A stretch of 64,000 nt of DNA, taken from positions 1 to 64,000 of IMG/VR virus record IMGVR_UViG_3300001683_000016; one strand, 5' to 3'. Each line of letters opens with the position of its first letter. Position 1 is the stretch's first letter. The position numbers were made by a program, and so were the translations under genes. Of the stretch, positions 40,411 through 61,509 are shown piece after piece. This DNA comes from a virus. The notes below the pieces were generated by a model. It made no database searches. It was not told where the DNA came from and saw nothing but the letters and a program-made list of their open reading frames with translations.

Positions 40411-40593
40411 TGCGCTCACTTCCTCGTAGTGTGATTCAGAATAGAGTCCGAGCATGATTTGGTCGCCGTTATCCACGGTGATACCACCATCGGGTTCAAG
40501 GATGGGGCGCGAAAGTTCGTGCTTGTTCCAATCAGGGAAGAGCGCATCGCGTATCATCTCAAACAATTCATCAGGGATGACAATGTCAGTCAT
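40408..40593 (-). CDS. hypothetical protein
   Basis: Coupled to ardC. Confidence 0.55.
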   Translation of the reverse strand: MTDIVIPDELFEMIRDALFPDWNKHELSRPILEPDGGITVDNGDQIMLGLYSESHYEEVSA

Positions 40594-41528
40594 GCGTCCA
40601 CCCCCATGAGGGATTTGAGTATGTAATCTGCGGCTGTCTGAGCACTACTAAACGCTTGACTGAGAGCCTTATCTTTATCTTTACACGCAGCCAACCATGA
40701 CTTAAGGTAGGCTTGACTGTTAGCATTATCCTCAACTACTGAGTCAGGTTTGAACTCTCCGCCTAGTGTGAGTGTCACGATTAACTGCCCCATTTCAGCA
40801 ATCAATTCTTCATAGGCATACTCAGGTGAACCAAAGGCAGACTTGAGTGGCCTCTCAACTCTGTTGACATGACCTGTACTATGAATAGCCTCATGGAATG
40901 CGGTCATTACTTCACCAATAGGTGAGATGAATGATTCATGTGGTGGCATTACAATATCATCTTTCTCTGACGAGTAGTATGCACGTACACCTTTGCGATG
41001 CAGGACAAGTGTATCCTGTGATGCTATGTAATCGTTGAAGTGAACCATCATCTCAGACTCAGGCACTACCTCAACCTCTTCTACATCAGGTGCTACATAA
41101 TCGACACATTGTTCAACACAAAATACAGTGTACCATCGTGTTAGCCATCTGCTGCGTGTCTCTTCTTCTCCGTCATCGTTCTCAACAATGAACTTACTAC
41201 GCTTGAAGAACTGTATGTTCACGCCATCACCATTAGTCAAGCCTTCTATTGAGTAACCTTTGCTTAATAATTGTTTACGAGTAGCAAAACGAAGGTCAGT
41301 CCATCCTCGTACCATACCCTCTATCCATAGTTGTACTATATTTCCACCTCGATATGCTTTCTTGCTAACCAAGTTATGTGGCATACTACCTGTACCACCA
41401 ACCCAAGGCTTGCGCCAAGGTAAGTTGTTGTCCGTTATAGCAGTGCTTAGGTTAGCAAACCATCGCTCTTGATTTTCCTGCTGCTTCATCTCTCCGTATG
41501 CCCTTTTCTGTTCTTTGTTCATTGTCAT
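40590..41528 (-). CDS. ardC: ArdC-like antirestriction protein (ssDNA-binding plus zincin)
   Basis: PWRKPW, YRGGN, T.KQ, VF.VEQ, AYY, HEAIHSTGH, YAYEELIAE, Y..SWL. Confidence 0.9.
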   Translation of the reverse strand: MTMNKEQKRAYGEMKQQENQERWFANLSTAITDNNLPWRKPWVGGTGSMPHNLVSKKAYRGGNIVQLWIEGMVRGWTDLRFATRKQLLSKGYSIEGLTNGDGVNIQFFKRSKFIVENDDGEEETRSRWLTRWYTVFCVEQCVDYVAPDVEEVEVVPESEMMVHFNDYIASQDTLVLHRKGVRAYYSSEKDDIVMPPHESFISPIGEVMTAFHEAIHSTGHVNRVERPLKSAFGSPEYAYEELIAEMGQLIVTLTLGGEFKPDSVVEDNANSQAYLKSWLAACKDKDKALSQAFSSAQTAADYILKSLMGVDA

Positions 41529-46286: not shown

Positions 46287-46927
46287 ACCCCTTCAACCAA
46301 GCGTGGCTTTTGCTGAAGTCCGAAATGCTGTTGTGGCCCAAACAACTCAACAATTACCGCAGCCCCGACTCTGCCAAGAGCAAGCCTGAATTGAGAATGC
46401 CGGGGCAGTTCAAGAAGCCGAGCGCAGCCGGATTCACTCAATTGTATCAGAAACCCGGTTTGGCTCGTTCATACGTGTCTCTTCCCAATATGGAACAACC
46501 GGGAAGTAGGATTGGTCTGAATAGCACTCTTAATGACCCCGCTATATCGGATAAGGACAAGGCAGGAGTCCAAGGAAGATATGATGAGCGTTTAGCCCAC
46601 AATGTGATGGGAACTGATGTACACGAGGATACGCATGTTGCGATGGATAGGATTGGGGAGACTTCGGACAATCCTTACCACAATGAGTTACCAGCCCACA
46701 TAGCAGAGACGCTTCAATTCACGAGAAGGCCGAGAGAAACGATAAACTCCAATGATGTGGTGCTTCAAGACCTCGATAGCGGCATGTCCCCTACTGAAGT
46801 CGCAGTCAAACGTGGAAAACAAGGAGCGATGATGCATCAACAGGTTAGTGGAACTGGACCCGATAATGGGATGTACACAACTGTAGGGCCGCAGAAGTTC
46901 ACCTATACGGGGGAACAGGGACAATGA
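46283..46927 (+). CDS. tagged protein, zincin metallopeptidase-like
   Basis: MNPFNQAWLLLK tag; HEDTH followed by NELPAH. Confidence 0.55.
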   Translation: MNPFNQAWLLLKSEMLLWPKQLNNYRSPDSAKSKPELRMPGQFKKPSAAGFTQLYQKPGLARSYVSLPNMEQPGSRIGLNSTLNDPAISDKDKAGVQGRYDERLAHNVMGTDVHEDTHVAMDRIGETSDNPYHNELPAHIAETLQFTRRPRETINSNDVVLQDLDSGMSPTEVAVKRGKQGAMMHQQVSGTGPDNGMYTTVGPQKFTYTGEQGQ

Positions 46928-47982
46928 ACCCCTTCGACCAAGCGTGGGTTTTGCTGAAACAAGAAGATAATAGAGATGAGATGATTGAAGGTGCATACCC
47001 TCACGAAACTCATTTGTGCAAACATTGTGGCTATCCCATCTATCACCATTGGCAACAAGGGCAAGGTGATGGAAGTCACCCACCGCAAGAGGTGTGGAGT
47101 GGTGAAGATGATGAAGGCGGAAACTGTTCAAGCCCAAGTGGATTTTGTGAGCCGGGAGAATCTCTCGGTAGGACATATCAAAGTGGTGAACCAATTGAGG
47201 CCACACCCGAATCGCACCCGAATCAAATCTACTTGAATGGGCGATTGGTTGATGCGAATGATTGGACAGACGAGCATGAAGCAGAAGTGAATGCTAACAA
47301 AGACCCGGAATCGGGCCAGCCGCTAGTCAATTGGAATGATACTTGGGATTGGAATAAGGATATTCAAACAGGCGAACCTATGGAAGTCGCTATGCGGTTG
47401 TTGAAGGATGATGACCCTCTGCAACATGTTGGGACATTTCTCAATCAATTAACACCGGATGATACGGGGGTTGAAAGATTAGGCGACCATACTGTTCACT
47501 TTGAAGGATTTACTGATATGTGCAATCTGTCAATCACACCTAATTGCCCTGCTGAACAATTACACCAAGAAGTGTGGGATGACTTTGATAAGCGACAAGG
47601 GCAAGAAGCCATCCATAGAGGTAAATGGGGTACGGAAGAAAACCCTACTATTTATTCTGTATATCATACACCGCAAGATGAGGTCAAAACAGGCGAACCT
47701 ATGGACATCGCCATGCGGTTGTTGAAGGGGCGTAACCTTTCACCAGCAGCACGTAAACACAAGTTGGAATACGATACAAAATACGAGTCTAACCCTAAAA
47801 GGGTCAAATATAGAGTTGACCTGAATCGTGAAAGACGGCGCAGGGGCATCTATGGTTCGGGCAACCGTAAAGATGTGAGTCATACCGAAGGTGGTAAACT
47901 CACCTTAGAAAACGAACACGATAATAGGGCTAGGCACTTTAAGGGTAAAGGCACACTTCGCAGAGTTAAGGTGAAGAAATGA
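46924..47982 (+). CDS. tagged polyprotein (Zn finger / unknown / HNH-like)
   Basis: N-terminal tag plus two internal TGEPMxxAMRLLK; CKHCG; C-terminal DVSH...NRAR. Confidence 0.7.
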   Translation: MNPFDQAWVLLKQEDNRDEMIEGAYPHETHLCKHCGYPIYHHWQQGQGDGSHPPQEVWSGEDDEGGNCSSPSGFCEPGESLGRTYQSGEPIEATPESHPNQIYLNGRLVDANDWTDEHEAEVNANKDPESGQPLVNWNDTWDWNKDIQTGEPMEVAMRLLKDDDPLQHVGTFLNQLTPDDTGVERLGDHTVHFEGFTDMCNLSITPNCPAEQLHQEVWDDFDKRQGQEAIHRGKWGTEENPTIYSVYHTPQDEVKTGEPMDIAMRLLKGRNLSPAARKHKLEYDTKYESNPKRVKYRVDLNRERRRRGIYGSGNRKDVSHTEGGKLTLENEHDNRARHFKGKGTLRRVKVKK

Positions 47983-48946: not shown

Positions 48947-49795
48947 ATGAGTGACTTCTCCATTTACGAAGTTGGTCCACGCGACGGTCTACAGAGCGCC
49001 GACACAATAACATCAACATATGACAAAGTAACCCTGATACGAAAAATTGCTAAGGCCGGTATCAAAAATATCGAAGTTGGCTCAATGGTCAATCCTGACA
49101 GAGTTCCTAATATGGCCGATAGCGATGTGGTTTTTCTCAAGGTTCAAGATTTAGCGCCTGAGCACAATCTCGGTGTCTTAGTGCCTAATCGCAGGGGAGT
49201 TGAGAGAGGAAAGGCTGTAGGTGTGGAAAAGTTCAATATTTTTTTCTCGCCGTCCAACTTTTTCAATGTCAATAACTTCGGAAAGAGCCTAAATACGATT
49301 TTTGCTGAATATTGTGGTGCATTAGACGGAATCCGACCCGAAAACGTTAGAGTATACCTTTCTACAGCCTTTGGATGTCCCATAATAGGTGAAATACCGC
49401 AAGAAGATATGTTAAAAACCATGGAATGGGCTAATACGCTGGGTGATACTATCGTTTTGTCTGATACAATTGGCAATGCTAACCCGTCCTTAATTCGTAA
49501 AGTGATGCGTTTAACTGACAGAAAAATAGATGCTAAGATAGCACTACATCTACATCATGGATTTAGAGAGGGTAGAATGTATGATAACTTGTCTGCTGGC
49601 TTTGATTGTGGGATAACTCAGTTCGATTCAAGCATTGGTGGGATGGGCGGATGTCCGTTTATACCGGGTTCAGGGGGCAATTTAGCCACTGAACAATTAG
49701 TACGCTGGGGTAGTAAAGAGAATCTTGATTGTGGTGTTACGATTAAAGATTTAGAACCGCTAATGAAGTTTGTAAATACTAGAATAAAAGTATAG
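48947..49795 (+). CDS. hmgL: hydroxymethylglutaryl-CoA lyase (DRE-TIM)
   Basis: EVGPRDGLQ, VPNMAD, AFGCP, DTIG, HLH, GGCPF..G..GNLATE. Confidence 0.92.
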   Translation: MSDFSIYEVGPRDGLQSADTITSTYDKVTLIRKIAKAGIKNIEVGSMVNPDRVPNMADSDVVFLKVQDLAPEHNLGVLVPNRRGVERGKAVGVEKFNIFFSPSNFFNVNNFGKSLNTIFAEYCGALDGIRPENVRVYLSTAFGCPIIGEIPQEDMLKTMEWANTLGDTIVLSDTIGNANPSLIRKVMRLTDRKIDAKIALHLHHGFREGRMYDNLSAGFDCGITQFDSSIGGMGGCPFIPGSGGNLATEQLVRWGSKENLDCGVTIKDLEPLMKFVNTRIKV

Positions 49796-51812: not shown

Positions 51813-54695
51813 ATGGTATTCAATAAATCTTGGAACTATTTGAAATCAATAAGCGATTGGTCGTCTACTGATAGTTTATATGGTAATGAGTATGAAGATG
51901 AACCTAGTATAGAAAGAAGAAATACTCCAACTATGGATAACTCGTATCAAAAAATCTTACCTCAAGATGACCCAAGATTAGATTATAGAACTGGTTGGAA
52001 AGGTGTAGAACCCGTTAGGGCTATTCGTGTACAATCAAATCATCGAAAGGCAGGTCAACCCGTACCTCAAGACGGCTCTAATATAAATTATGAACAAGGT
52101 GACCCAAAGTTACCGCCAAAGATTCCTGAGATACCTGATGACGATGACCCTGTTTGGGATGACCCCGACTCACGATGGAGTAAAGACCCCAAATCGGGTT
52201 CAAGATATTATATGTCGGGTAAATATGAAGATGGTAAGTATATTTCTCGTAAAAACAAGCATTTTGTTGATTTGAAAAATGCAAAGGCTGGAACTTGGGC
52301 TGCAAACAATACTGTTGGGGATATTAATAATTTATATACTCATAACCAACCTGATAAGTTGGTCTATATTCGTGGGAGTCCCGATAAATATGGTAAAGTA
52401 CACAGAAGGGATAGTGACGAAGCGGATGAAGGTTTAGCAGAAATGTTTATCGAACATAAAAAAGATATTTCACCTGAAAACCTTGTTGAAGTACCGTTAA
52501 AGACTCATTATAGAAACCAAACAAAAGATATGGGTACTCCTGACCTTGGGCATAATAGACGCTCAAAAAGTGATAAAAGCGGGCGAGTTAGTCGTTGGAG
52601 TGATAAACCTGTACCTTGGGGCTACAGCCACAAGAAAAAGGGCGAACCAATGGACATAGCCTTCCAGTTGCTCAAGATGTCTGCTGATGAAGCAGATGAG
52701 TTGGAAGAGCAAATGCTTTCTGATATGGAAAGAGGGACCAGTAATCCACGCTCACGAAGAAAACAGCGAAGTATGGGCGAAAGGGAATCAAAGGCATCTA
52801 TCCATAATTTTCCCGGTTCATCATCTCGTAGAGAAATGTGGGATGAAAAGCAGAAAGAAAGAGACTGGGAACGATGGGGAAAGAGACATGCTGAAGATAA
52901 AGCAATTGCAGGAAAAGACCTACCCTCATATCATGGGTTTGGTAGCGATAGGCTAAGAGAAATCCATCCGGGTGATAGAGGGAACGATTTCTCATCTATG
53001 AAACCGGGAAAATATGAGTTTGACGGTGTAGGTAGGGAAGAAAGACCCATACCTTTTGAGCCGGGTGATAACCTTATGGAGTGGTTACAGCCCGGATACA
53101 ACGAATCTAACAACCTAAGACTATTCAGGGATAAGGATGACTCTAAACATGAGTGGCAACCAAAACCGTGGACAACAAGTGGCCCTATCAATCATGTTCC
53201 CGAAACCCAAGAATGGGTAAACAACCCTTTTGATGAAGAACCAACTTTTCACGGGATACCATTCAATGAAGATACGGGTTTCACAACAGGTGAACCAATG
53301 GACATAGCCTTCCAGTTGCTCAAGGGAAAGACAAGGCAATCTACTCTTTGGGGTTACGACCCAAAAATGGTAGAGAACTTACTCGCAGAAGATAACAGTA
53401 ATATTTTCATCGCCGCTAAACCCGGAAACGATGATATGCCCGATGATGAACAAAATGAGCGTTCGGATAAAATGCTACAAGACCTCGCCGCACTCAAAGA
53501 GGAACATGGTCACTTCGATATAACCAGTGCCACAGGTAGAGCGCAGTGGGACGCAGAACCATCTTTCATGCTCACTAACGTGCCTGATAGTGCAAGGGAT
53601 TCCATTAATGAGATAGCGGAAAGATACGGTCAGGAATCCATGGGAATCTCGGAAAAGGGGGAGAAAGGGGTGAACTACGTTACACCGGAGGGGGAGGTAA
53701 AGGACAAGTTCAGTAGTATGGAGATGCAGGAAAAACCGGAGTACTCTACAGATTTTCCGAGTAGTCAGAGGCTGGCTTTTACGGGTTGGCAGGAAGCAAA
53801 TAAGGCTAATCCAATGCACATAGCCTTCCAGTTGCTCAAGGGTTGGGCAGGTGGTGTTAGAGGTATAGGTAATAATGCCACGGACAACATTTATCATTAT
53901 CCACACGAATTAGATTACGGCGCGATAGACGAATATATGGGTGAGAATCCTGATGCTACTCTCGGTAGTATGGTAACGCCGTATCTACAAGGACAGTTTA
54001 CAAATAATCCTCCTCTCTTTCCAGAATTAAGCACAAATCCGCCAACCTATCAAAGTGAAAGACCTACTCAATTACAAAGCACAGTTCCGGCACCTTTTCC
54101 ACAAACCCCCGAACAATCTAAAGGTGTTCAAAATCTCATTGATGATGGATTTGAAAACTATGAATCTAGAGATAGAACGAGAAAACCCCATTACGATAGC
54201 ATGAATAATGCAGTCAGAGTATTATCTAGAAATTTAAGAAGAAACCCTGCATACAATTTTACGCCGCCGGGACGATTACGAGGCACTAAGGGACAGGGCG
54301 GTAGAAGTAGGCAAATGCAGAACATGAAACTAAGAAGTTTGTTAGATACTCCTGTATCTCAAAGTATGGCAGAGATGAACATACCGAAACAAGGAATACC
54401 AATTGCGGCAGGCGAACCAATGAACATAGCCTTCCAATTGCTCAAAGAGCGCAAGTCACCAGCAGCATTTGCTCACAAGTTAGAGTATGACAAGCAATAT
54501 CAAAAGACACCTAAGCGCGTAAAGTACCGTGAGCAATTAAACGCAGAGCGTAGGAAGCGTGGCATATACGGTAAGGGTGGTGCGGATGTTAGCCACACAC
54601 AAGGTGGTAAACTCACTCTTGAAAGCGCACATGCTAATAGAGCAAGACATTTCAAAAACAAAGGCACTCTCCGCAGGGTCAAGGTGAAAAAATGA
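51813..54695 (+). CDS. tagged five-segment polyprotein (ART-like / unknown / SAM-lyase-like / unknown / HNH-like)
   Basis: N-terminal FNKSWNYLK; internal PMxIAFQLLK at 52641, 53289, 53811 and 54411. Confidence 0.8.
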   Translation: MVFNKSWNYLKSISDWSSTDSLYGNEYEDEPSIERRNTPTMDNSYQKILPQDDPRLDYRTGWKGVEPVRAIRVQSNHRKAGQPVPQDGSNINYEQGDPKLPPKIPEIPDDDDPVWDDPDSRWSKDPKSGSRYYMSGKYEDGKYISRKNKHFVDLKNAKAGTWAANNTVGDINNLYTHNQPDKLVYIRGSPDKYGKVHRRDSDEADEGLAEMFIEHKKDISPENLVEVPLKTHYRNQTKDMGTPDLGHNRRSKSDKSGRVSRWSDKPVPWGYSHKKKGEPMDIAFQLLKMSADEADELEEQMLSDMERGTSNPRSRRKQRSMGERESKASIHNFPGSSSRREMWDEKQKERDWERWGKRHAEDKAIAGKDLPSYHGFGSDRLREIHPGDRGNDFSSMKPGKYEFDGVGREERPIPFEPGDNLMEWLQPGYNESNNLRLFRDKDDSKHEWQPKPWTTSGPINHVPETQEWVNNPFDEEPTFHGIPFNEDTGFTTGEPMDIAFQLLKGKTRQSTLWGYDPKMVENLLAEDNSNIFIAAKPGNDDMPDDEQNERSDKMLQDLAALKEEHGHFDITSATGRAQWDAEPSFMLTNVPDSARDSINEIAERYGQESMGISEKGEKGVNYVTPEGEVKDKFSSMEMQEKPEYSTDFPSSQRLAFTGWQEANKANPMHIAFQLLKGWAGGVRGIGNNATDNIYHYPHELDYGAIDEYMGENPDATLGSMVTPYLQGQFTNNPPLFPELSTNPPTYQSERPTQLQSTVPAPFPQTPEQSKGVQNLIDDGFENYESRDRTRKPHYDSMNNAVRVLSRNLRRNPAYNFTPPGRLRGTKGQGGRSRQMQNMKLRSLLDTPVSQSMAEMNIPKQGIPIAAGEPMNIAFQLLKERKSPAAFAHKLEYDKQYQKTPKRVKYREQLNAERRKRGIYGKGGADVSHTQGGKLTLESAHANRARHFKNKGTLRRVKVKK

Positions 54696-55063
54696 GTAAT
54701 TATCCGTCATACCCAACGACACCTCCTAAAAAATGTGAATATTGTAATGGTGCTGGAATTATTGACCCTTATGGTGATGAAGAGGATGTGGCTCAGGCTG
54801 ACCCAAGATATCCACATGAAACATGTTGGAAGTGCAAAGGAACAGGTATACAGACAGAATGGTCATTTAACCCATATATGCCTTCTTTCCACCCCCCTTC
54901 TTTCCCCCCCCCTTCTTTCCACCCCCCTTCTTACCACGCCCCTCCCCCGTCCAAAATGGAATTAGGAGAGCCAACAATTAATTTTGACCCTGAATGGCAA
55001 GAAATGAATAAAAGTTCTAGTGTTGCATTTTCATTAGCGTGGAACTTACTTAAATCAGAATAA
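54692..55063 (+). CDS. Zn-finger/Pro-repeat protein with C-terminal tag (AFSLAWNLLK)
   Basis: CEYCNGAG, CWKCKGTG; PSFHP repeats. Confidence 0.65.
   Translation: MSNYPSYPTTPPKKCEYCNGAGIIDPYGDEEDVAQADPRYPHETCWKCKGTGIQTEWSFNPYMPSFHPPSFPPPSFHPPSYHAPPPSKMELGEPTINFDPEWQEMNKSSSVAFSLAWNLLKSE
54881..54937 (+). repeat. 15-bp tandem repeat with poly-C (PSFHP, about 4 units)
   Basis: ccttctttccacccc units. Confidence 0.8.
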
Positions 55064-55064
55064 A

Positions 55065-55148
55065 CTGTCCGATAATTCCGATTGTACGTCTATACAAATA
55101 TACATAATATTACTTGTATATAGACAATACATTAGATTATTCGGACAG
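55065..55148. repeat. palindromic element, copy 3 of 3
   Basis: CTGTCCGA..TGTA.GTCTATA...TATAGAC..TACA..TCGGACAG, followed by a TATA-like AACCCTTAAG. Confidence 0.8.
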
Positions 55149-55195
55149 CCAACCCTTAAGATGACCCCCACTGTGGGCTAACACGAGGTCACAGC

Positions 55196-55852
55196 ATGAG
55201 CAGAGATGTAGGGGATACAAACGAAATGAAAATGACAGGGTTGATTTTATCTCAATCGGCCTTAGTTGGATTAGCAATAGGAGTATATAGTTCGGGTTTA
55301 TGGATGCCCGCAGGTTCAAGTGCAAGTTCAACAATAGATGGTATGACTTATGCGATGGGTGCGCTTGCAGTTCAAACAATAGCATATTATTTGTTTAAGA
55401 TGTTCTTTGAACAGTCTATGAAAGAGAAAGTGGAAGTTGCAGAATTACAAAGAAACAGGCAGAATATGTATAGACAGCAGCAAATGGGCTTTGACCAACG
55501 TAGAGTAGATTTAGAATTGAGACAAATGGAACTGCAATTAGAAAACGAATTACGTATGATGCATGAAGACCCTAACAGAGTATTAGATAATAATTTTAAT
55601 AGCGGTGCAGTTAGTGCTGGTGTTCAAGGTGACTATCATAATACCTTCAACCCCGGACTTGTACCTGTGCATGGTGCAAAAAATGAGGTACCAATGAATC
55701 TTGGACTTACTAGTACACAGGAAGCAGTTGACTCAATGGCTCACTCCAATTTACCGCCACGCAGTTTACCTATACCGCCAAGAGACGGACAACCTACAAC
55801 ACAGCGTTTGAAGAAAGATGGTACGCCGGATTTAAGATATAGAGCATCGTGA
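55196..55852 (+). CDS. membrane protein (2 TM plus coiled coil)
   Basis: Two hydrophobic segments, Q/E-rich coil, C-terminal LKKDGTPDLRY. Confidence 0.7.
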   Translation: MSRDVGDTNEMKMTGLILSQSALVGLAIGVYSSGLWMPAGSSASSTIDGMTYAMGALAVQTIAYYLFKMFFEQSMKEKVEVAELQRNRQNMYRQQQMGFDQRRVDLELRQMELQLENELRMMHEDPNRVLDNNFNSGAVSAGVQGDYHNTFNPGLVPVHGAKNEVPMNLGLTSTQEAVDSMAHSNLPPRSLPIPPRDGQPTTQRLKKDGTPDLRYRAS

Positions 55853-55863
55853 GGTAGACCGAT

Positions 55864-56151
55864 ATGGTACTACCCGGACAACTAATTCCCTCTCCGTTGC
55901 GTATATTTCGTAATATTGGTGATGATTCGGTCGAAGAAACTCTTAGAGCAATGCATTTAGCAAATACTGTAGATAATACTTATGAATGGGGACTTGGTTG
56001 GATTAGAACAATAGTCGTATCTATTGTTGCTGTTATGTCTGTGTCTGCTATGGAAGCGAACTCAGATTGGAATCTTTGGGAATTAACAGTAGAATGGTGG
56101 TATCAAAAAGTAGCAGATTTTGGTTCTTGGATTACTAATAAGTTTAGTTGA
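55864..56151 (+). CDS. small membrane protein
   Basis: IRTIVVSIVAVMSVSAM segment and Trp-rich amphipathic tail. Confidence 0.65.
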   Translation: MVLPGQLIPSPLRIFRNIGDDSVEETLRAMHLANTVDNTYEWGLGWIRTIVVSIVAVMSVSAMEANSDWNLWELTVEWWYQKVADFGSWITNKFS

Positions 56152-56162
56152 GTTGATGCTTA

Positions 56163-56879
56163 GTGGTCGCTGCGAGTGGTAGTGTATTAGTAGGCGTGGC
56201 CTTGTATGGTAAACAAGCATACAATAATTGGAAATCTCGAAGAGTAGGGATTTATGGTGCAACTATGGTTGGTAAGACAACTTTAGACAAATATATGACT
56301 ACTCCGGGCGAAATGGAAGAAATACCTGAACATGAAAGAACCACGCATTTTAAGTTGGTTACTCGCTATATACTTCCTAAACCTACTCGTAAAAGAGTTC
56401 GCTGGGAAGGTGAAAGGAGGGTTATTCATTCTGCCGACATAGGTGGCGAAGAGCGTTTTTGGAATCTTTGGATTGATGATATGGTAACTAGACAATGTGA
56501 ATACGTTATATTCATGTTTGATGATAGAGCGTTTCAAGGAGGGGATGAGGCTTTACAGCAAGTAGGAGGTTTTAGATTCTTAGTTGATAGTATAATAAAT
56601 AGAAATTATAGGTATAGAAACTGGAAGAGTTGGAGAAGGGGTAAGAGGTATGTGCCTAAGATGATATTACTAGTTGCAAATAAAGCAGATAGATATTTTG
56701 ATGCTAAAGCGGCACAGTTATGGAGAGAGGGTAGAATTGGAGAACATAAGATATTTGACCCTTTTAGAGAAGACCTAATTAGATTACAAAAAGCAGGTGT
56801 ACCAACGCGCCGTTCATTCATGGCAACACGTATAGGGTGGAACGTTGAGAACACATTATTAGAGATGATAGATTACTGA
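56163..56879 (+). CDS. Ras-superfamily (Arf/Rab-like) small GTPase
   Basis: G1 GATMVGKTT, G2-like RTT, G3 DIGG, VIFMFD, G4 NKAD, G5-like MATR.G.NV. Confidence 0.85.
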   Translation: MVAASGSVLVGVALYGKQAYNNWKSRRVGIYGATMVGKTTLDKYMTTPGEMEEIPEHERTTHFKLVTRYILPKPTRKRVRWEGERRVIHSADIGGEERFWNLWIDDMVTRQCEYVIFMFDDRAFQGGDEALQQVGGFRFLVDSIINRNYRYRNWKSWRRGKRYVPKMILLVANKADRYFDAKAAQLWREGRIGEHKIFDPFREDLIRLQKAGVPTRRSFMATRIGWNVENTLLEMIDY

Positions 56880-56922
56880 CCTCAAAAGTGACCTTTTTAA
56901 TGTGGTAGGGTGTGGGAACGAC

Positions 56923-57102
56923 ATGGCGAAGGGGGCGACGACGACTGCATTAGTTTCCACAGGAGGCTCTAGTAATTCACTTAGAACTACTATACCTATG
57001 TGGATTGTGGAACAATTTGGTTTGTCTGCTGGCTCTAAAATAGAATGGACTTTAGAAGTTAAAAATGGGGAAATGTCTATTTCAGTATGCCCACAGGAGT
57101 GA
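56923..57102 (+). CDS. AbrB/SpoVT-type DNA-binding protein
   Basis: SLRTTIPMWIVEQFGLSAGSKIEW. Confidence 0.8.
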   Translation: MAKGATTTALVSTGGSSNSLRTTIPMWIVEQFGLSAGSKIEWTLEVKNGEMSISVCPQE

Positions 57103-57107
57103 TATAT

Positions 57108-58076
57108 ATGGTAATGGGTATGAATCCTTTTAATAATTCGCAACAACCAAATCTTGGGCAAGTAAACGACGCTACATTAATGGCATTATCTCAACAAGGA
57201 AATCCGAATTTCTCTCATGCTGCCCTATTAGAACAAGCATCAGCACAACAGCAAATGCAAAGGATGGCAACAGAAAAAAATATAGAAGTACCTAAGGTAA
57301 ACTTTTATCCTTCTCGTCATGCTAATCCATATAAAGCAAGAAAACAAGATATTAATCAAGCATACAAACTCTTGGCTCCTACAAAACGTGCTTTTTTTGA
57401 CCCTAGGAGATTATTTCGCCATAGTAAATATATGTATAATAAAGATACTGCTGTGTGTTGTGTAGATGGTTGTAATGTAAAACAATTAATACAACACGAT
57501 AATCTGTATGCTAGAATAACTGATGAAGAAAGTGGTAGAACACTTTGGGATATGTATTGGCAGAATCCAGTTACTGGAGAGCCTGAAGCGTTTATTGCTA
57601 GAGAGGGCGTAACTAGCGGTCGTAAAATGAGGGCTACATATTGTCCTGAGCATTTACATTTGTATCATTTGTTATGTAGGTGGGAGGACCAACAAGATGT
57701 TGAAGATGAAATGAAACCTAGTCGCTTCCGTGATAAAATAAAAAGAGGAGTTAGTATAGTCACAGTACCGATATCCACTGTCACTGGTGTTGATACAGGA
57801 CCATCTCACCCCATGATTACAAAATACGAAAGTTTCTTTGCTGAAATATCAGCAGATGCTAGAGGTAGTAACGGTATTAGTATGCAACATTATACTAATC
57901 CGGTTACTGGAGATAACGATATAACAACTATAACATTTGATATGAGAATGTTCCAAAAAGAATTAATGGAAATGAATCAGCCAAATCCAGCGTTTCAGGA
58001 TATTCTAAACCAACAGGCTCAAGTTCTCGCCCCCGCTCCGACGATACCGGAAGCAGTAATGGAGGGTATGCAATGA
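57108..58076 (+). CDS. hypothetical protein (Cys/His motifs, Q-rich ends)
   Basis: CCVDGC...YCPEHLH. Confidence 0.7.
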   Translation: MVMGMNPFNNSQQPNLGQVNDATLMALSQQGNPNFSHAALLEQASAQQQMQRMATEKNIEVPKVNFYPSRHANPYKARKQDINQAYKLLAPTKRAFFDPRRLFRHSKYMYNKDTAVCCVDGCNVKQLIQHDNLYARITDEESGRTLWDMYWQNPVTGEPEAFIAREGVTSGRKMRATYCPEHLHLYHLLCRWEDQQDVEDEMKPSRFRDKIKRGVSIVTVPISTVTGVDTGPSHPMITKYESFFAEISADARGSNGISMQHYTNPVTGDNDITTITFDMRMFQKELMEMNQPNPAFQDILNQQAQVLAPAPTIPEAVMEGMQ

Positions 58077-58726
58077 CTATGGGATGGAACAATCAACAAC
58101 CTGCTTCTAATGCATTAAATCTTAGTCAAACGGGTGCACCGAGTATGCAATATGGTAGTCCACAACCTAATTATTTACCGCCACAACAAGGTTGGTATGG
58201 TCAACAACAACAACCTTCATTTTTTAATTCTATGTTTGCTGGTGCTACTGGACAAGACCCATATAATCAACAAGCGATATTACCTCCGAGTGAAACTGAG
58301 ATTTTGATGACTATGTTGAATACCTCTTATCCGGTAGAAAGATTTCTTCAAAGTTCAATCTTCCCTATGTTATTAGAGGTTATTAGTCAAATTACTACAT
58401 TTTCATTACTGAATGTAATTAAAAATGCAAGTTATAACTTTGATGAAGAGAATGGTGTTTTTACATTAGATACTGCTAGTTTACCAACTGAATTACAAAC
58501 TATGAGTTCAGAAAATATAATGTCACAAATGAACTCTATGACTAATATGATTAATCAAACAGTTTCAAATGCAGATACACAAAGACAGCAAACAATGCAA
58601 AATGCTCAACAAAGTATGTTACAAAGTCAATTGACTAATGCGCTTGCTGACCCCGGTATGTTAAATAATGTAGCACAAGGTAGTGGTACTTTCTTCCGTA
58701 ATTTTATAACTGGGGGTAGAACATAA
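58073..58726 (+). CDS. Q/N/M-rich hypothetical protein
   Basis: Low-complexity N-terminus, helical core. Confidence 0.7.
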   Translation: MTMGWNNQQPASNALNLSQTGAPSMQYGSPQPNYLPPQQGWYGQQQQPSFFNSMFAGATGQDPYNQQAILPPSETEILMTMLNTSYPVERFLQSSIFPMLLEVISQITTFSLLNVIKNASYNFDEENGVFTLDTASLPTELQTMSSENIMSQMNSMTNMINQTVSNADTQRQQTMQNAQQSMLQSQLTNALADPGMLNNVAQGSGTFFRNFITGGRT

Positions 58727-58995
58727 TGTTAGGTAGTAATGGTTCTAGTAATTTTGGTATGCCTGTACCAAAACAATTAGCAGATATGTCAATACATATG
58801 CTTGCTCCAAAGAGAGAAGTAATTGTAGATATGGTGATGGTACAATTAATTAGCGCTATACTTATTTTTATGGGTATTCTAATATTCAAAAATAACGATA
58901 TTAACCAAGGGGAAATGTCTATGTATATGGTAGGAGTATTTTTATCCTTTATTCTCTTGACATCTATATATCAGCGAATAACGCGGTTTGTATAA
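58726..58995 (+). CDS. small 2-TM membrane protein
   Basis: Two hydrophobic segments. Confidence 0.7.
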   Translation: MLGSNGSSNFGMPVPKQLADMSIHMLAPKREVIVDMVMVQLISAILIFMGILIFKNNDINQGEMSMYMVGVFLSFILLTSIYQRITRFV

Positions 58996-59031
58996 GCAAG
59001 GCTGATTAACCATATGGTATTCGGGTTATAT

Positions 59032-59715
59032 ATGGTTGAGCGAGAGCCAGTTATGAAACGTTCCTGTGCTTTCTGTCAAAATGATGACAGAAAGGGTTTG
59101 GAAGAGACCATAAAAAATGGTGAATTATCTTGTGCTCAATTGGATAAAGATATGAGTTGGAGGGCCAATACCGCCGACCGTCATTATCGTAATCACATGG
59201 GTCAATATCACATGGCTGCAAACCCGTCTTGCCTTATTTGTTCAAGTGAGAACAGAGCAGAGTATGAAAGTAGATTCTTCTCTGATGGCACAGAATCTGA
59301 ATTAATAGCAGAAGAATTAGAAATTAAAGAAACTACGGTATATCACCATATGAAACATCACTTTCAGCCACTGGTTCAACGCTCGGCAGTAACCGAGGTT
59401 GCAATTACAGTTGGGAATGAAATAACTGTATTACGAAATAATGTTGAGAAACTTAATACTAAATTAGCAGAATTATTAGATGAAGGTAGTGTACACGAAG
59501 AGGGCTTTGTGAGAAATGCAGTAACTTTACATAAAGAAGTTAGAGAGTCAATAAAAGATTTAACTGGCTTCCAAGATAAATGGGGTACTACAACAGACGG
59601 TACACAAGTGAATCAAACTATTAATATACTCAAAATAGAATTAGCAAAAGAAAGTCCCGATAGTTGGAAGAGAATCAAAAGTAAGTTACAAGCGGAAATG
59701 GAGGAAGTTATATGA
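59032..59715 (+). CDS. tandem Zn-HTH protein, possible terminase small subunit
   Basis: Two CxxC...HTH...HxxxH repeats plus a coiled coil. Confidence 0.5.
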   Translation: MVEREPVMKRSCAFCQNDDRKGLEETIKNGELSCAQLDKDMSWRANTADRHYRNHMGQYHMAANPSCLICSSENRAEYESRFFSDGTESELIAEELEIKETTVYHHMKHHFQPLVQRSAVTEVAITVGNEITVLRNNVEKLNTKLAELLDEGSVHEEGFVRNAVTLHKEVRESIKDLTGFQDKWGTTTDGTQVNQTINILKIELAKESPDSWKRIKSKLQAEMEEVI

Positions 59716-60116
59716 TACCTGTATCGGATTTAATGCAAGTTCAACATCCGGGTTATCGTACTTTTATACAATCTAATACTATGTCCGCTATGCATTATCC
59801 TTTATTTTTTGATTATTGTATATGTGTATCAGAAAGATTTAGACATTATGCATATCAAGAGGCTAATGTACTAATTAATGAAAATAGTCTTATGCATATA
59901 ATAGATTGCATAAAACAATTAGATGATACCGATGAGCCTGAAATAGTATTACCGTTGAGAGAACAGATAAGACATTCATGTTACGAGTTCTTAGAACATT
60001 GTAATGATATGTCTACTAAATTCAAAAGCCCAACCAGTATTTCTTTATTTTATAATGAGTTAGGACAACTCGTGATGCAGACCGCTTTTGAGTTTGCGGG
60101 GGTACAACATGAGTAA
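59712..60116 (+). CDS. hypothetical protein
   Basis: 134-aa coupled ORF. Confidence 0.6.
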   Translation: MIPVSDLMQVQHPGYRTFIQSNTMSAMHYPLFFDYCICVSERFRHYAYQEANVLINENSLMHIIDCIKQLDDTDEPEIVLPLREQIRHSCYEFLEHCNDMSTKFKSPTSISLFYNELGQLVMQTAFEFAGVQHE

Positions 60117-61509
60117 GCCAGTAAAGATTTTGAAGTCAGGTATGACTAGTACTGGTAGCGATACTCGTATGTATGGACCGAGAAGTGAATCCTCTCACAT
60201 GTTCCATGGTAATCACGAAGATGAAGGGGATGTTTACGGTGGAGAAGGGGGTGAATATCGTGATGCAAGAATTGACCGCAAAAAGAAAGAACGTAAAGAA
60301 AGAGAATCTGAAATGAAGAAGTTAAGACATATTTCAGTAACTACAGCAGATTTACCTCCTGAAGATGAGGAAGAAAAAGATAAAGACTTAGAACCGACAA
60401 AATTCGATAATGAACTTGAGCCTTCTTTAATGACCGGTACTCCGGGTAATTTTGGTGCTATGACTAGTATGGCTAATCAAGCAAGGGGGCCGGGTTTTGC
60501 CGGTGGGCATAATTTTGCTATGGGAGAACCAATGAATATAGCGTTCCAGTTATTGAAAGGCGGGAGAGCCGGTTTTATAGGTAAAAAACCAAAGAGGGCG
60601 AAGGGTGCTAAAGCAGCAAGAGCGCATAAAGAAAGGCAGAAGAAATGGAGGCCATCTACTGGTGAGTTCAAAAGGCCGCCGGGTGGTATGACACCGGCTA
60701 GTGCTACATCTAGAAGAGCAAAGGCAAGAATGCGAGGTATTGCCGGTAGCAAGAAAACAGGGTTAGGTAGAGCACATCTTGCTGTCGAAATGTCTCACAG
60801 AGGTGTAAAAACTAAACAGCCTATGTCGAAAGATGTAAAGAGATATAGACAATACCTAGGACAGTCTGAAGCAAGAAAGCGTTTAGGTAACATACGAACT
60901 ATTTCTTCTACACCTTCTAGATTTGGTGCACGTTCATACAAAGCGGGGTTAACTGGCGGTGGTACACTACAAAGTCTACTCCCCGGACAAGCCCAACAAA
61001 TGAGAAGACCATCACTTAGGTCAATTAGACCTCCACCGTTAATGCCACCTTCTGCACCTAGTAGAGCCACTTTACCTTCACCTTCCATACCGAGTCCTCC
61101 TGTAATGTCCCAACCAAGAATGGGAGTTGGGGTGCAAAGCATGTCCAACCAAAGTCCAACTTATAGACCTAAGTTACCTAGTTCTTCAATACAAGGTGCA
61201 CCTGTAATGACTGGTGAGATTGGAGAAGGTAGTGAACTACAAAAAAGGGGACTATCATACTATGACACCACAGAATTAAGACAATTACTCCTTGATGCTA
61301 AAAGAGCCTTGAACCGTAAAGAGAATAAGAAAAAGGGTAAAGGAGAGAGAAGTACAGATGCTGCTAGTCATTTACCCGCCCATACAGAAGCAGGCCCGAA
61401 ACAGACCACAAGACCTGAAGGCGCTACAGAAGATGCAAATAATGAGCCTCGCACATTTGGTATTAATCCTCTAGACCATCTTACAAGTAGAGGCGGTAGA
61501 ACACCTTGA
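60109..61509 (+). CDS. acidic/basic low-complexity protein with internal tag (GEPMNIAFQLLK)
   Basis: Tag at 60523-60558 separates an acidic segment from an R/K-rich segment. Confidence 0.75.
   Translation: MSKPVKILKSGMTSTGSDTRMYGPRSESSHMFHGNHEDEGDVYGGEGGEYRDARIDRKKKERKERESEMKKLRHISVTTADLPPEDEEEKDKDLEPTKFDNELEPSLMTGTPGNFGAMTSMANQARGPGFAGGHNFAMGEPMNIAFQLLKGGRAGFIGKKPKRAKGAKAARAHKERQKKWRPSTGEFKRPPGGMTPASATSRRAKARMRGIAGSKKTGLGRAHLAVEMSHRGVKTKQPMSKDVKRYRQYLGQSEARKRLGNIRTISSTPSRFGARSYKAGLTGGGTLQSLLPGQAQQMRRPSLRSIRPPPLMPPSAPSRATLPSPSIPSPPVMSQPRMGVGVQSMSNQSPTYRPKLPSSSIQGAPVMTGEIGEGSELQKRGLSYYDTTELRQLLLDAKRALNRKENKKKGKGERSTDAASHLPAHTEAGPKQTTRPEGATEDANNEPRTFGINPLDHLTSRGGRTP

Follow-up and report, generated by a model that had tools for sequence, protein, structure and literature searches.

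How could a tailed virus of archaea make use of a small GTPase encoded among small membrane proteins? The question is raised by the IMG/VR virus record IMGVR_UViG_3300001683_000016, of which positions 1 to 64,000 were analysed. This stretch (hereafter the window) is the first 64 kb of one 115,554-bp viral contig. Between positions 55,196 and 58,995, it carries seven open reading frames (ORFs) that a preliminary description of this DNA had taken for a membrane-protein operon built around an Arf/Rab-like small GTPase; on re-reading, all seven were confirmed at their positions (Table 1). Judged by its motifs and its predicted fold, the 238-amino-acid (aa) product of the third ORF is a genuine Ras-superfamily small GTPase. 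It is embedded in a gene cassette whose order is kept among related viruses. We tentatively propose, with less than even confidence, that the cassette encodes a GTP-switched membrane module for late-stage virion release.

The GTPase and its family

The G motifs of the protein occur in the order first described: GATMVGKTT (residues 32-40), DIGGEERFWNLW (92-103), VIFMFD (115-120), LVANKAD (170-176), and MATRIGWNV (220-228). The layout thus comprises a helix (residues 2-23), G1 (32-40), G3 (DIGGE, 92-96), G4 (NKAD, 173-176), and G5 (MAT, 220-222). Thr60 is the candidate G2 residue; R59-T60 is invariant in near relatives and (R/S)T.H recurs in distant ones, within a loop that carries an insertion and for which no solved-structure alignment fixes the residue. 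This insertion adds about 25 aa between switch I and strand 2, among them a conserved basic patch, KPTRKR. From NKAD and the other G motifs, we conclude that the protein has a predicted guanine specificity and would bind the nucleotide.

At least 539 homologs of 233-238 aa, with 67-95% identity, were found, all of them on magrovirus-type contigs, many of which are 80-125 kb long. Among the full-length homologs, GKTT is present in 152/162 and NKAD in 151/162. Comparison with members at 26-45% identity shows D92, G95, and R110 unchanged even at 26%, with D120 and R122 almost as constant. Against close relatives, the ratio of nonsynonymous to synonymous substitution rates (dN/dS) of the GTPase is about 0.04, the lowest in the cassette. 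Longer or fused forms were searched for and none was found, which is weak evidence.

Single-sequence searches with the window protein gave sub-threshold family matches only (Roc, E-value 0.002; MMR_HSR1, 0.027; TIGR small_GTP, 0.009) and a chance match only in the PDB. A locus search with P0156 as the query gave no match. An AlphaFold model computed with 20 close sequences only had a predicted local distance difference test score (pLDDT) of 56.7; a diverse alignment of 33 sequences, used in its place, led to a model with a pLDDT of 86.6 and a predicted TM-score of 0.85, in which helix 2-23 is followed by a Ras-like core. With this model, Foldseek retrieved Ras, Rab, and Rac structures at E-values of about 1e-8 and probability 1.0, and hhalign comparisons with Asgard small GTPases gave 95-96% probability. 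Taken together, the number of homologs, the retained motifs, the low dN/dS, and the model exceed by far what chance would produce.

Which branch of the superfamily is closest? Once the 1000 best Foldseek chains had been re-aligned, Arf, Arl, and Asgard ArfR proteins filled the top 21 rows (Z scores: Arl8b 17.9, Arf6 17.8, Arl1 17.7, Arf1 17.5, GerdArfR1 17.1, HodArfR1 16.7). These top Arf-family rows span Z 16.1-17.9, at a root-mean-square deviation of 2.2-2.8 Å over about 160 residues for most, whereas Rab5 and Ras reach at most 15.6. A wide structure search independent of Foldseek was led by Arf6, Sar1, and SR-beta. In sequence, the best PDB match of the family profile is the Asgard protein GerdArfR1 (8OUN, E-value 2.8e-5), followed by Arl8; the identity of 8OUN as GerdArfR1 is confirmed by its description (bioRxiv 10.1101/2024.02.28.582541). 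The family hidden Markov model gives 24-27 bits for two canonical Asgard Arf-like proteins and at most 8.6 bits for three Rab/Ras-like proteins of the same genome. As a lead only, the protein-language Atlas places the viral clusters themselves first, then bacterial clusters carrying PF00025. However, hhalign reaches 95.4% with an Asgard Arf over 83 columns, corresponding to the first half of the domain, and 96.0% with an Asgard Rab-like protein over 163 columns, corresponding to the whole domain.

Curated models remain below their thresholds. The window protein has no match to Pfam Arf (PF00025), and a search of the full virus genome with that profile was also empty; among 33 family members, 4/33 match it, at an E-value of 0.0048 or weaker and all below the cut-off. 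Single members weakly match models of the Roc, MMR_HSR1, Gtr1/RagA, and EF-Tu types, and one matches Pfam SRPRB at an E-value of 5.6e-5. Because no curated family threshold was passed, the GTPase is treated as a distinct viral family, outside the curated Arf family, that by sequence and model would act like a GTPase of the Arf/Sar/SR-beta type. Of the initial Arf/Rab-like assignment, what stands is a real small GTPase whose shape ranks as Arf-like; the Pfam Arf threshold was failed and the profiles do not give an Arf versus Rab/Ras split.

Comparison with known GTPases illustrates this position. The Arf family (Arf1/Arf6, Arl1, Arl8, Sar1, and the Asgard ArfR proteins of PDB entries 8OUM/8OUN) provides the best G-domain fold scores, and shares with the viral protein a helix before strand 1, the NKxD motif, and a G5 'xAT' comparable to the CAT of Arf. 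Switch II reads DxGG(Q/E/H)....LW in the viral family, with the Trp at the Arf/Sar position and with both the Q of Arf and the H of Sar1 represented. In contrast, identity is below 20%, the extra 25 or so residues and the basic patch after switch I are peculiar to the viral GTPase, Trp replaces the switch II Arg, no known exchange factor or activating partner is found, and the helix is more hydrophobic than amphipathic. Besides, the virus that encodes it is tailed, and GTPases of this kind were not found in 61 genomes of its host order. SR-beta (Z 16.1) also has an Arf-like G domain and a hydrophobic N-terminal membrane anchor, and recruits a soluble partner in its GTP state. However, SR-beta is eukaryotic only, and the viral cassette has a late-gene setting and no partner like SR-alpha/SRX.

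The residue that follows DxGG deserves attention, since the preliminary description had pointed to a Glu in place of the catalytic Gln. Gln is the catalytic residue of Arf and Ras and His that of Sar1; Gln, Glu, His, and Asp are all polar and able to position water, and the Q61E mutant of Ras still hydrolyses GTP. The window protein does have Glu96, but this is no defect peculiar to it. In 162 homologs, the position is occupied by Q (94), E (64), H (2), D (1), or A (1). On a tree of 88 locus-encoded proteins, E marks one large clade that includes the window protein, with an apparent reversal to Q inside, and has at least two further independent origins; H is seen at two points of the tree, one of them the whole distant clade, and D at a single point. 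The reading of Glu as the sign of a dead GTPase was therefore rejected. These repeated changes among Q, E, H, and D argue that hydrolysis is retained while the choice of residue is relaxed, and against a dead switch.

At the N-terminal side, every full-length member has 22-27 residues ahead of strand 1, made of a small-residue hydrophobic run and then an aromatic/basic amphipathic stretch. In most family members, the hydrophobic moment exceeds that of 90% or more of shuffled sequences. The hydrophobic N-terminal segment of the first description is thus real and its helix is conserved across the family, but it lies below the transmembrane (TM) threshold. As in the Arf family, a helix precedes strand 1, here more hydrophobic than in classic Arf. 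Membrane association through this conserved helix is plausible from the alignments and the model.

The GTPase had also been called unusual for a tailed prokaryotic virus, and the searches bear this out. It has no PHROG match, and tblastn against 50,697 GenBank phage records gave no homolog. Of the top 50 structural matches in BFVD, every one for which an organism is named comes from a giant virus of eukaryotes. When 1.84 billion cluster representatives were searched with the single sequence, only 76 clusters were retrieved, unnamed and mostly fragments of the same viral family. The Ras/Rab/Ran GTPases of giant viruses, which make up nearly all the top BFVD matches (mimivirus Rab, PDB 5XC5, Z 15.2), are likewise virus-encoded small GTPases. 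However, those viruses infect eukaryotes and took up host Rab/Ran genes recently, whereas the magrovirus family is old, self-contained, carried by archaeal viruses, and without a host counterpart. In the searchable literature, no paper links magroviruses with a GTPase or describes the cassette, and the sole prior annotation found is the automatic JGI label 'GTPase SAR1 family protein' on some homologs. What is new here is a small-GTPase switch, as a new viral family in a new genetic setting.

The cassette, its virus and its host

Synteny was followed in 80 IMG/VR loci and in seven distant ones (L084-L086 and L092-L095), whose GTPases are at 31-38% identity. In 80/80 of the nearer loci, the genes are kept on one strand in the order p218, p95, GTPase, AbrB, p329, p217, p89, p233, (p134), p473, p805. 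Each is present in 79-80/80 loci, except AbrB (74/80) and p134 (57/80). According to the preliminary description, its reading would fall if the neighbours were not syntenic in relatives; they are syntenic in every relative examined, and the reading is not refuted on this point. In 7/7 distant loci, the p329 gene directly follows the GTPase gene, without AbrB between them. In L085 and L095, the distant loci whose ORFs were read, the genes upstream of the GTPase encode a TM protein, with or without a coiled coil, and a small protein with one TM helix. L085 has a 149-aa analogue of p218 with the same layout, and the p95 analogues are of 75 aa in L085 and 72 aa in L095. The Q-rich and helix-turn-helix (HTH) genes are kept in L084 and L085, and L085 also has the 2-TM gene (an 81-aa p89 analogue). 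As it is absent in the distant lineages, AbrB is, on gene content, an accessory and not a core member of the cassette. A toxin-antitoxin reading of AbrB and the GTPase was rejected for the same absence in L084-L086 and L092-L095.

The cassette genes are spaced by 11-22 nucleotides (nt) or overlap, and all are under purifying selection, with dN/dS of 0.05-0.20 for the neighbours of the GTPase. The membrane proteins first described beside the GTPase were recovered by hydropathy. One TM helix of p218 is clear and the second is weaker but conserved; the conserved motif RLKKDGTPDLRYK stands at its C-terminal end, and the protein, present in 79/80 loci, has a dN/dS of 0.06-0.14. p95 is found in 80/80 loci with a dN/dS of 0.07-0.12. 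The AbrB-type regulator also held, since it passes the Pfam SpoVT/AbrB cut-off. p329 invariably follows the GTPase as the nearest conserved gene, in 80/80 loci and in all distant lineages, with a dN/dS of 0.07-0.10. Its invariant residues are Cys124, Cys186-Pro-x-His189, His194, KAR (83-85), and FDxR (284-287), the Cys and His residues being a putative zinc site. No relative of p329 was found in PDB, Pfam, PHROG, NCBIfam, or Atlas. Two Q-rich proteins had been announced; p217 (80/80 loci and L084/L085) fits with 12.9% Q, whereas p329 has only 7.6%, concentrated at both ends. At the downstream border, p233 may be a regulator or a small-terminase-like DNA binder. One p233 ortholog (L029:8922-9605) has an in-frame stop, which may reflect gene breakage, an error in sequencing, or a wrongly set boundary. 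Neither the GTPase nor its neighbours match PHROG, PADLOC, or NCBIfam above cut-offs, and PDB searches with the p329, p218, and p233 profiles gave no meaningful match.

Table 1. Coordinates of the cassette, its borders, and the morphogenetic genes that follow on the same contig
Feature	Position	Strand	Characteristics and basis
Spacer, 132 nt	55064-55195		AT-rich, conserved; palindromes TATACAAATA/TACTTGTATA and CCCAC.GTGGG
p218, 218 aa, membrane protein	55196-55852	+	Two TM helices, cytoplasmic coiled coil, variable linker, conserved C-terminal RLKKDGTPDLRYK; hydropathy, alignment
p95, 95 aa, single-pass membrane protein	55864-56151	+	TM ~44-62, motif GW(I/V)RT; hydropathy; followed after 11 nt by the GTPase gene
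Arf-like small GTPase, 238 aa	56163-56879	+	GTG start; motifs, homologs, predicted fold
SpoVT/AbrB-type small DNA-binding protein, 66 aa	56902-57102	+	Pfam PF04014 (MazE_antitoxin), E-value 1.7e-5, 25.1 bits vs. cut-off 24.7
p329, 329 aa, orphan soluble Cys/His protein	57087-58076	+	Alignment; probable true start Met8 (57108)
p217, 217 aa, Q/N-rich	58073-58726	+	Core PPSETEIL...FSLLNVLKN...SLP..LQT.SAENI; start overlaps p329 stop (ATGA)
p89, 89 aa, two-TM membrane protein	58726-58995	+	Hydropathy; 80/80 loci
p233	59014-59715	+	Two CxxC pairs, weak LuxR/GerE-type HTH, C-terminal coiled coil; downstream cassette border; 80/80 loci and L084/L085
Large terminase	64540-66033	+	Beyond the window
LAGLIDADG-like gene	Among the plus-strand genes listed between terminase and portal	+	Beyond the window
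Portal	67258-69006	+	Beyond the window
Prohead protease	75967-77334	+	Beyond the window
SU10-type capsid protein	77364-78533	+	Beyond the window

The contig is divided into two halves. The minus-strand half carries archaeal-type replication genes, namely a family B polymerase, a clamp loader, a primase, an exonuclease, a thymidylate-synthase-like protein, an SNF2 helicase, and a thermosome subunit. The plus-strand half begins at about 44.8 kb and extends past the window end into the morphogenetic genes. Magroviruses are among the most abundant archaeal viruses of the surface ocean, and Marine Group II archaea are abundant in the ocean. The thermosome, SNF2, and LAGLIDADG insert found here agree with what has been published on group A magroviruses, which are tailed viruses infecting Marine Group II archaea (PMC5434244).

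The cassette stands about 8 kb upstream of the terminase, portal, and capsid genes, in the same orientation, and a near-gapless run of genes leads on to the terminase. On the plus strand, from 51.8 to 66 kb, only two gaps exceed 30 nt: the 132-nt spacer before p218 and a 233-nt gap before 51813. Over five loci, the mean column identity of the spacer is 85%, and it is better conserved than the synonymous sites of the flanking genes. Such identity, despite synonymous divergence (dS) of 0.45-1.9 in those genes, fits a promoter/operator. The spacer is thus the likely promoter/operator of a transcription unit opening with the cassette, and perhaps an operator for the AbrB or the HTH protein. Because this spacer precedes the cassette, because its orientation is that of the terminase, portal, protease, and capsid genes, and because intergenic gaps are almost absent, the cassette would be expressed late, together with the morphogenetic genes, the basis being gene position.

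As to the host, L085 is a 106-kb contig from a Poseidoniales single-amplified genome, which makes a credible host link. Four other contigs with the cassette (L082, L083, L084, and L086) sit in metagenome-assembled genomes labelled Maricaulis, Promethearchaeati (Asgard), Parvibaculum, and Flavobacteriales; they are most likely mis-binned viral contigs. In 61 Poseidoniales genomes, no PF00025 (Arf) match was found, the same search being positive in 12/14 control genomes. PF00071 (Ras) gave marginal matches only, of 20-24 bits and within frames of 374 and 670 aa, most likely belonging to other GTPase classes. Since no Arf/Ras-type small GTPase appears in the 61 genomes searched, the module looks virus-autonomous, and its partners are probably supplied by the cassette itself. 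A recent origin of the gene from the host was rejected, because those genomes have no such gene and the search of 1.84 billion representatives retrieved mostly fragments of the same family.

Several other features of the genome were observed. A 12-residue tag, GEPM(D/N)IAFQLLK, occurs four times in a 960-aa protein (51813-54695) and once in a 473-aa protein (60088-61509), and a 123-aa protein (54692-55063) ends in AFSLAWNLLK. In p329 orthologs of distant lineages (e.g., L085:4151-5137), SFQLLK or SYELLK is found where the window p329 reads HAALLEQ. The C-terminal 70 or so residues of the 960-aa protein (E-value 9e-19) and of a 352-aa protein (46924-47982, E-value 2e-16) both match phrog_6437, of unknown function, and form a shared terminal module. 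A 312-aa protein (40590-41528, minus strand) strongly matches phrog_7245, annotated as an anti-restriction protein (E-value 1e-47). A 282-aa protein (48947-49795) has a clear HMGL-like (pyruvate carboxyltransferase) domain (E-value 1.5e-25), in contrast with the founding magrovirus paper, in which no auxiliary metabolic genes were reported (PMC5434244). Finally, outside the window, in the structural half of the contig, a single open frame of 5,516 aa (88525-105075) presumably encodes a giant tail or adhesin protein.

Possible roles of the cassette

An Arf/Sar/SR-beta-like switch with a membrane helix, membrane-protein neighbours, and a place upstream of the late genes suggest together a GTP-gated late event at the cytoplasmic membrane. 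In the mechanism that we propose, the GTPase would be held on, or switched onto, the cytoplasmic face of the host membrane by its N-terminal helix. There, it would act with the membrane proteins p218, p95, and p89 and the soluble proteins p329 and p217. We infer both this membrane attachment and the binding of partners within the cassette. The ensemble would be a virus-autonomous, GTP-timed membrane module, produced late from the promoter-like spacer with the downstream morphogenetic genes. It would control or execute the disruption or remodelling of the host membrane for release, as a GTPase-gated functional counterpart of a holin cassette.

The comparison with holin lysis cassettes is instructive. 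In lambdoid phages, lysis genes stand at the head of the late operon, immediately before the terminase genes. Similarly, the presumed late operon here opens, shortly before the packaging genes, with several small proteins that have one or two TM helices and charged cytoplasmic tails; this feature, displayed by p218, p95, and p89, is not holin-specific. However, the viral cassette has no endolysin, embeds a GTPase and two soluble orphans, and shows no sequence relation to holin families in Pfam and PHROG. The egress machinery of tailed archaeal viruses is uncharacterised, according to a review (PMC10791045). A paper on egress genes in viruses of Poseidoniales describes a holin-like system only for Vyasavirus, which belongs to a separate order, Adrikavirales, and names no magrovirus egress gene (PMC11706807).

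A cellular counterpart may be sought in Haloferax volcanii, where the Arf-like GTPase ArvA drives outward vesicle budding (PMC10927574). Like the viral protein, ArvA, compared here by its description, is an archaeal Arf-like GTPase with an N-terminal amphipathic helix, encoded in an operon with a Zn-type protein and acting at the cell membrane. In contrast, the system here is viral and not cellular, its partners are small TM proteins, and no neighbour contains DUF2073 (ArvB) or DUF2072 (ArvC) in Pfam searches with E-values up to 1. As for modules of the MglA-MglB type, no neighbour matches Roadblock/LC7 (MglB) in Pfam or NCBIfam.

Several points weigh against a release module. Small TM proteins abound in virus genomes and do not by themselves indicate lysis, and the late timing of the cassette is deduced from gene position alone. 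The Arf-like shape is that of a predicted model, and sequence profiles do not separate Arf from Rab/Ras. The N-terminal segment, although hydrophobic, is under the TM threshold, and in the window protein its amphipathicity is modest, with a moment of 0.45 that 10% of shuffles reach. No neighbour resembles a known GTPase-activating protein, guanine nucleotide exchange factor, coat, or holin family in searches of Pfam, PHROG, NCBIfam, PADLOC, and PDB. Pfam and PHROG searches of the genes next to the cassette revealed no lytic enzyme, lipase, or protease of the S-layer, and the cassette itself contains no hydrolase, amidase, or protease family of Pfam, PHROG, or NCBIfam.

Four other roles have to be weighed. 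The main rival, which we hold to be unlikely, is a membrane-bound platform for assembly or packaging. The GTPase and the TM proteins would then mark the site of prohead initiation or DNA packaging, GTP hydrolysis serving as a checkpoint. In phage T4, head assembly is portal-initiated on the inner membrane and is aided by gp40. The location of the cassette, directly upstream of the genes for the HTH/Zn protein, terminase, portal, protease, and capsid and in their orientation, suits such a platform, and the SFQLLK-type piece of distant p329 orthologs, resembling the tag on many proteins of the genome, could mean an association with capsids. However, searches of Pfam, PHROG, and PDB detected no similarity to a known assembly factor; tailed viruses generally assemble without such a module, and membrane-linked head assembly proceeds without a known GTPase.

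Less probable still is a device for host takeover or exclusion, which would reprogram division, transport, or the S-layer, or block superinfection, instead of serving release. With no small Ras/Arf GTPases in the 61 genomes of the host order, the virus would import a new regulatory principle, and short conserved cytoplasmic motifs such as RLKKDGTPDLRYK in p218 would fit docking onto host factors. Yet genes of this sort are usually variable and early, whereas few parts of the genome are as conserved as the cassette, which adjoins the morphogenetic genes; moreover, no PADLOC or anti-defence family was matched.

The GTPase could also build intracellular compartments or vesicles, by budding or tubulating the membrane inward, either for a replication or assembly compartment or for vesicles that carry virions out without lysis. 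The model comes nearest to Arf, Arl, and Sar1 in their GTP-bound state, among them Arf1 on membrane tubules (8s5c, Z 17.4), the family keeps its N-terminal helix, and Asgard Arfs and haloarchaeal ArvA associate with membranes or bud them (PMC11914678; PMC10927574). This role nonetheless appears improbable: Pfam searches found no coat-like or ArvB/ArvC-like partner, and tailed archaeal viruses are not known to use such compartments, so that the case is one of analogy only.

Equally improbable is a soluble regulatory GTPase, acting on translation, on the packaging ATPase, or on transcription with the AbrB or HTH protein and linked to its TM neighbours by gene order only, since the weak matches of single members to Roc, MMR_HSR1, Gtr1/RagA, and EF-Tu type models and the DNA-binding proteins AbrB and p233 within the block have to be set against a TM-TM-GTPase order (11-nt gaps here) kept down to 31-38% identity, a conserved hydrophobic N-terminal helix, and an AbrB that is dispensable in distant lineages.

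We thus return to the proposal of a GTP-switched module for virion release. A stronger form of it, a self-contained, virus-encoded Arf-like membrane machine which in a prokaryotic virus would be the first GTPase-driven system of egress or vesiculation, is rather doubtful. The host is uncultivated and the cassette is known here from its genes alone, its role being that of a candidate. If true, such a machine would explain how tailed archaeal viruses without holin and endolysin get out of cells whose only boundary is a membrane and an S-layer, and it would operate in a host lineage whose 61 searched genomes show no small GTPase of the Ras/Arf type. For Arf-type GTPases beyond eukaryotes and Asgard archaea, this old, virus-borne family is a further data point. 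Finally, a conserved, virus-specific Arf-like GTPase accompanied by small membrane proteins offers a concrete and clonable candidate for the egress of archaeal tailed viruses.

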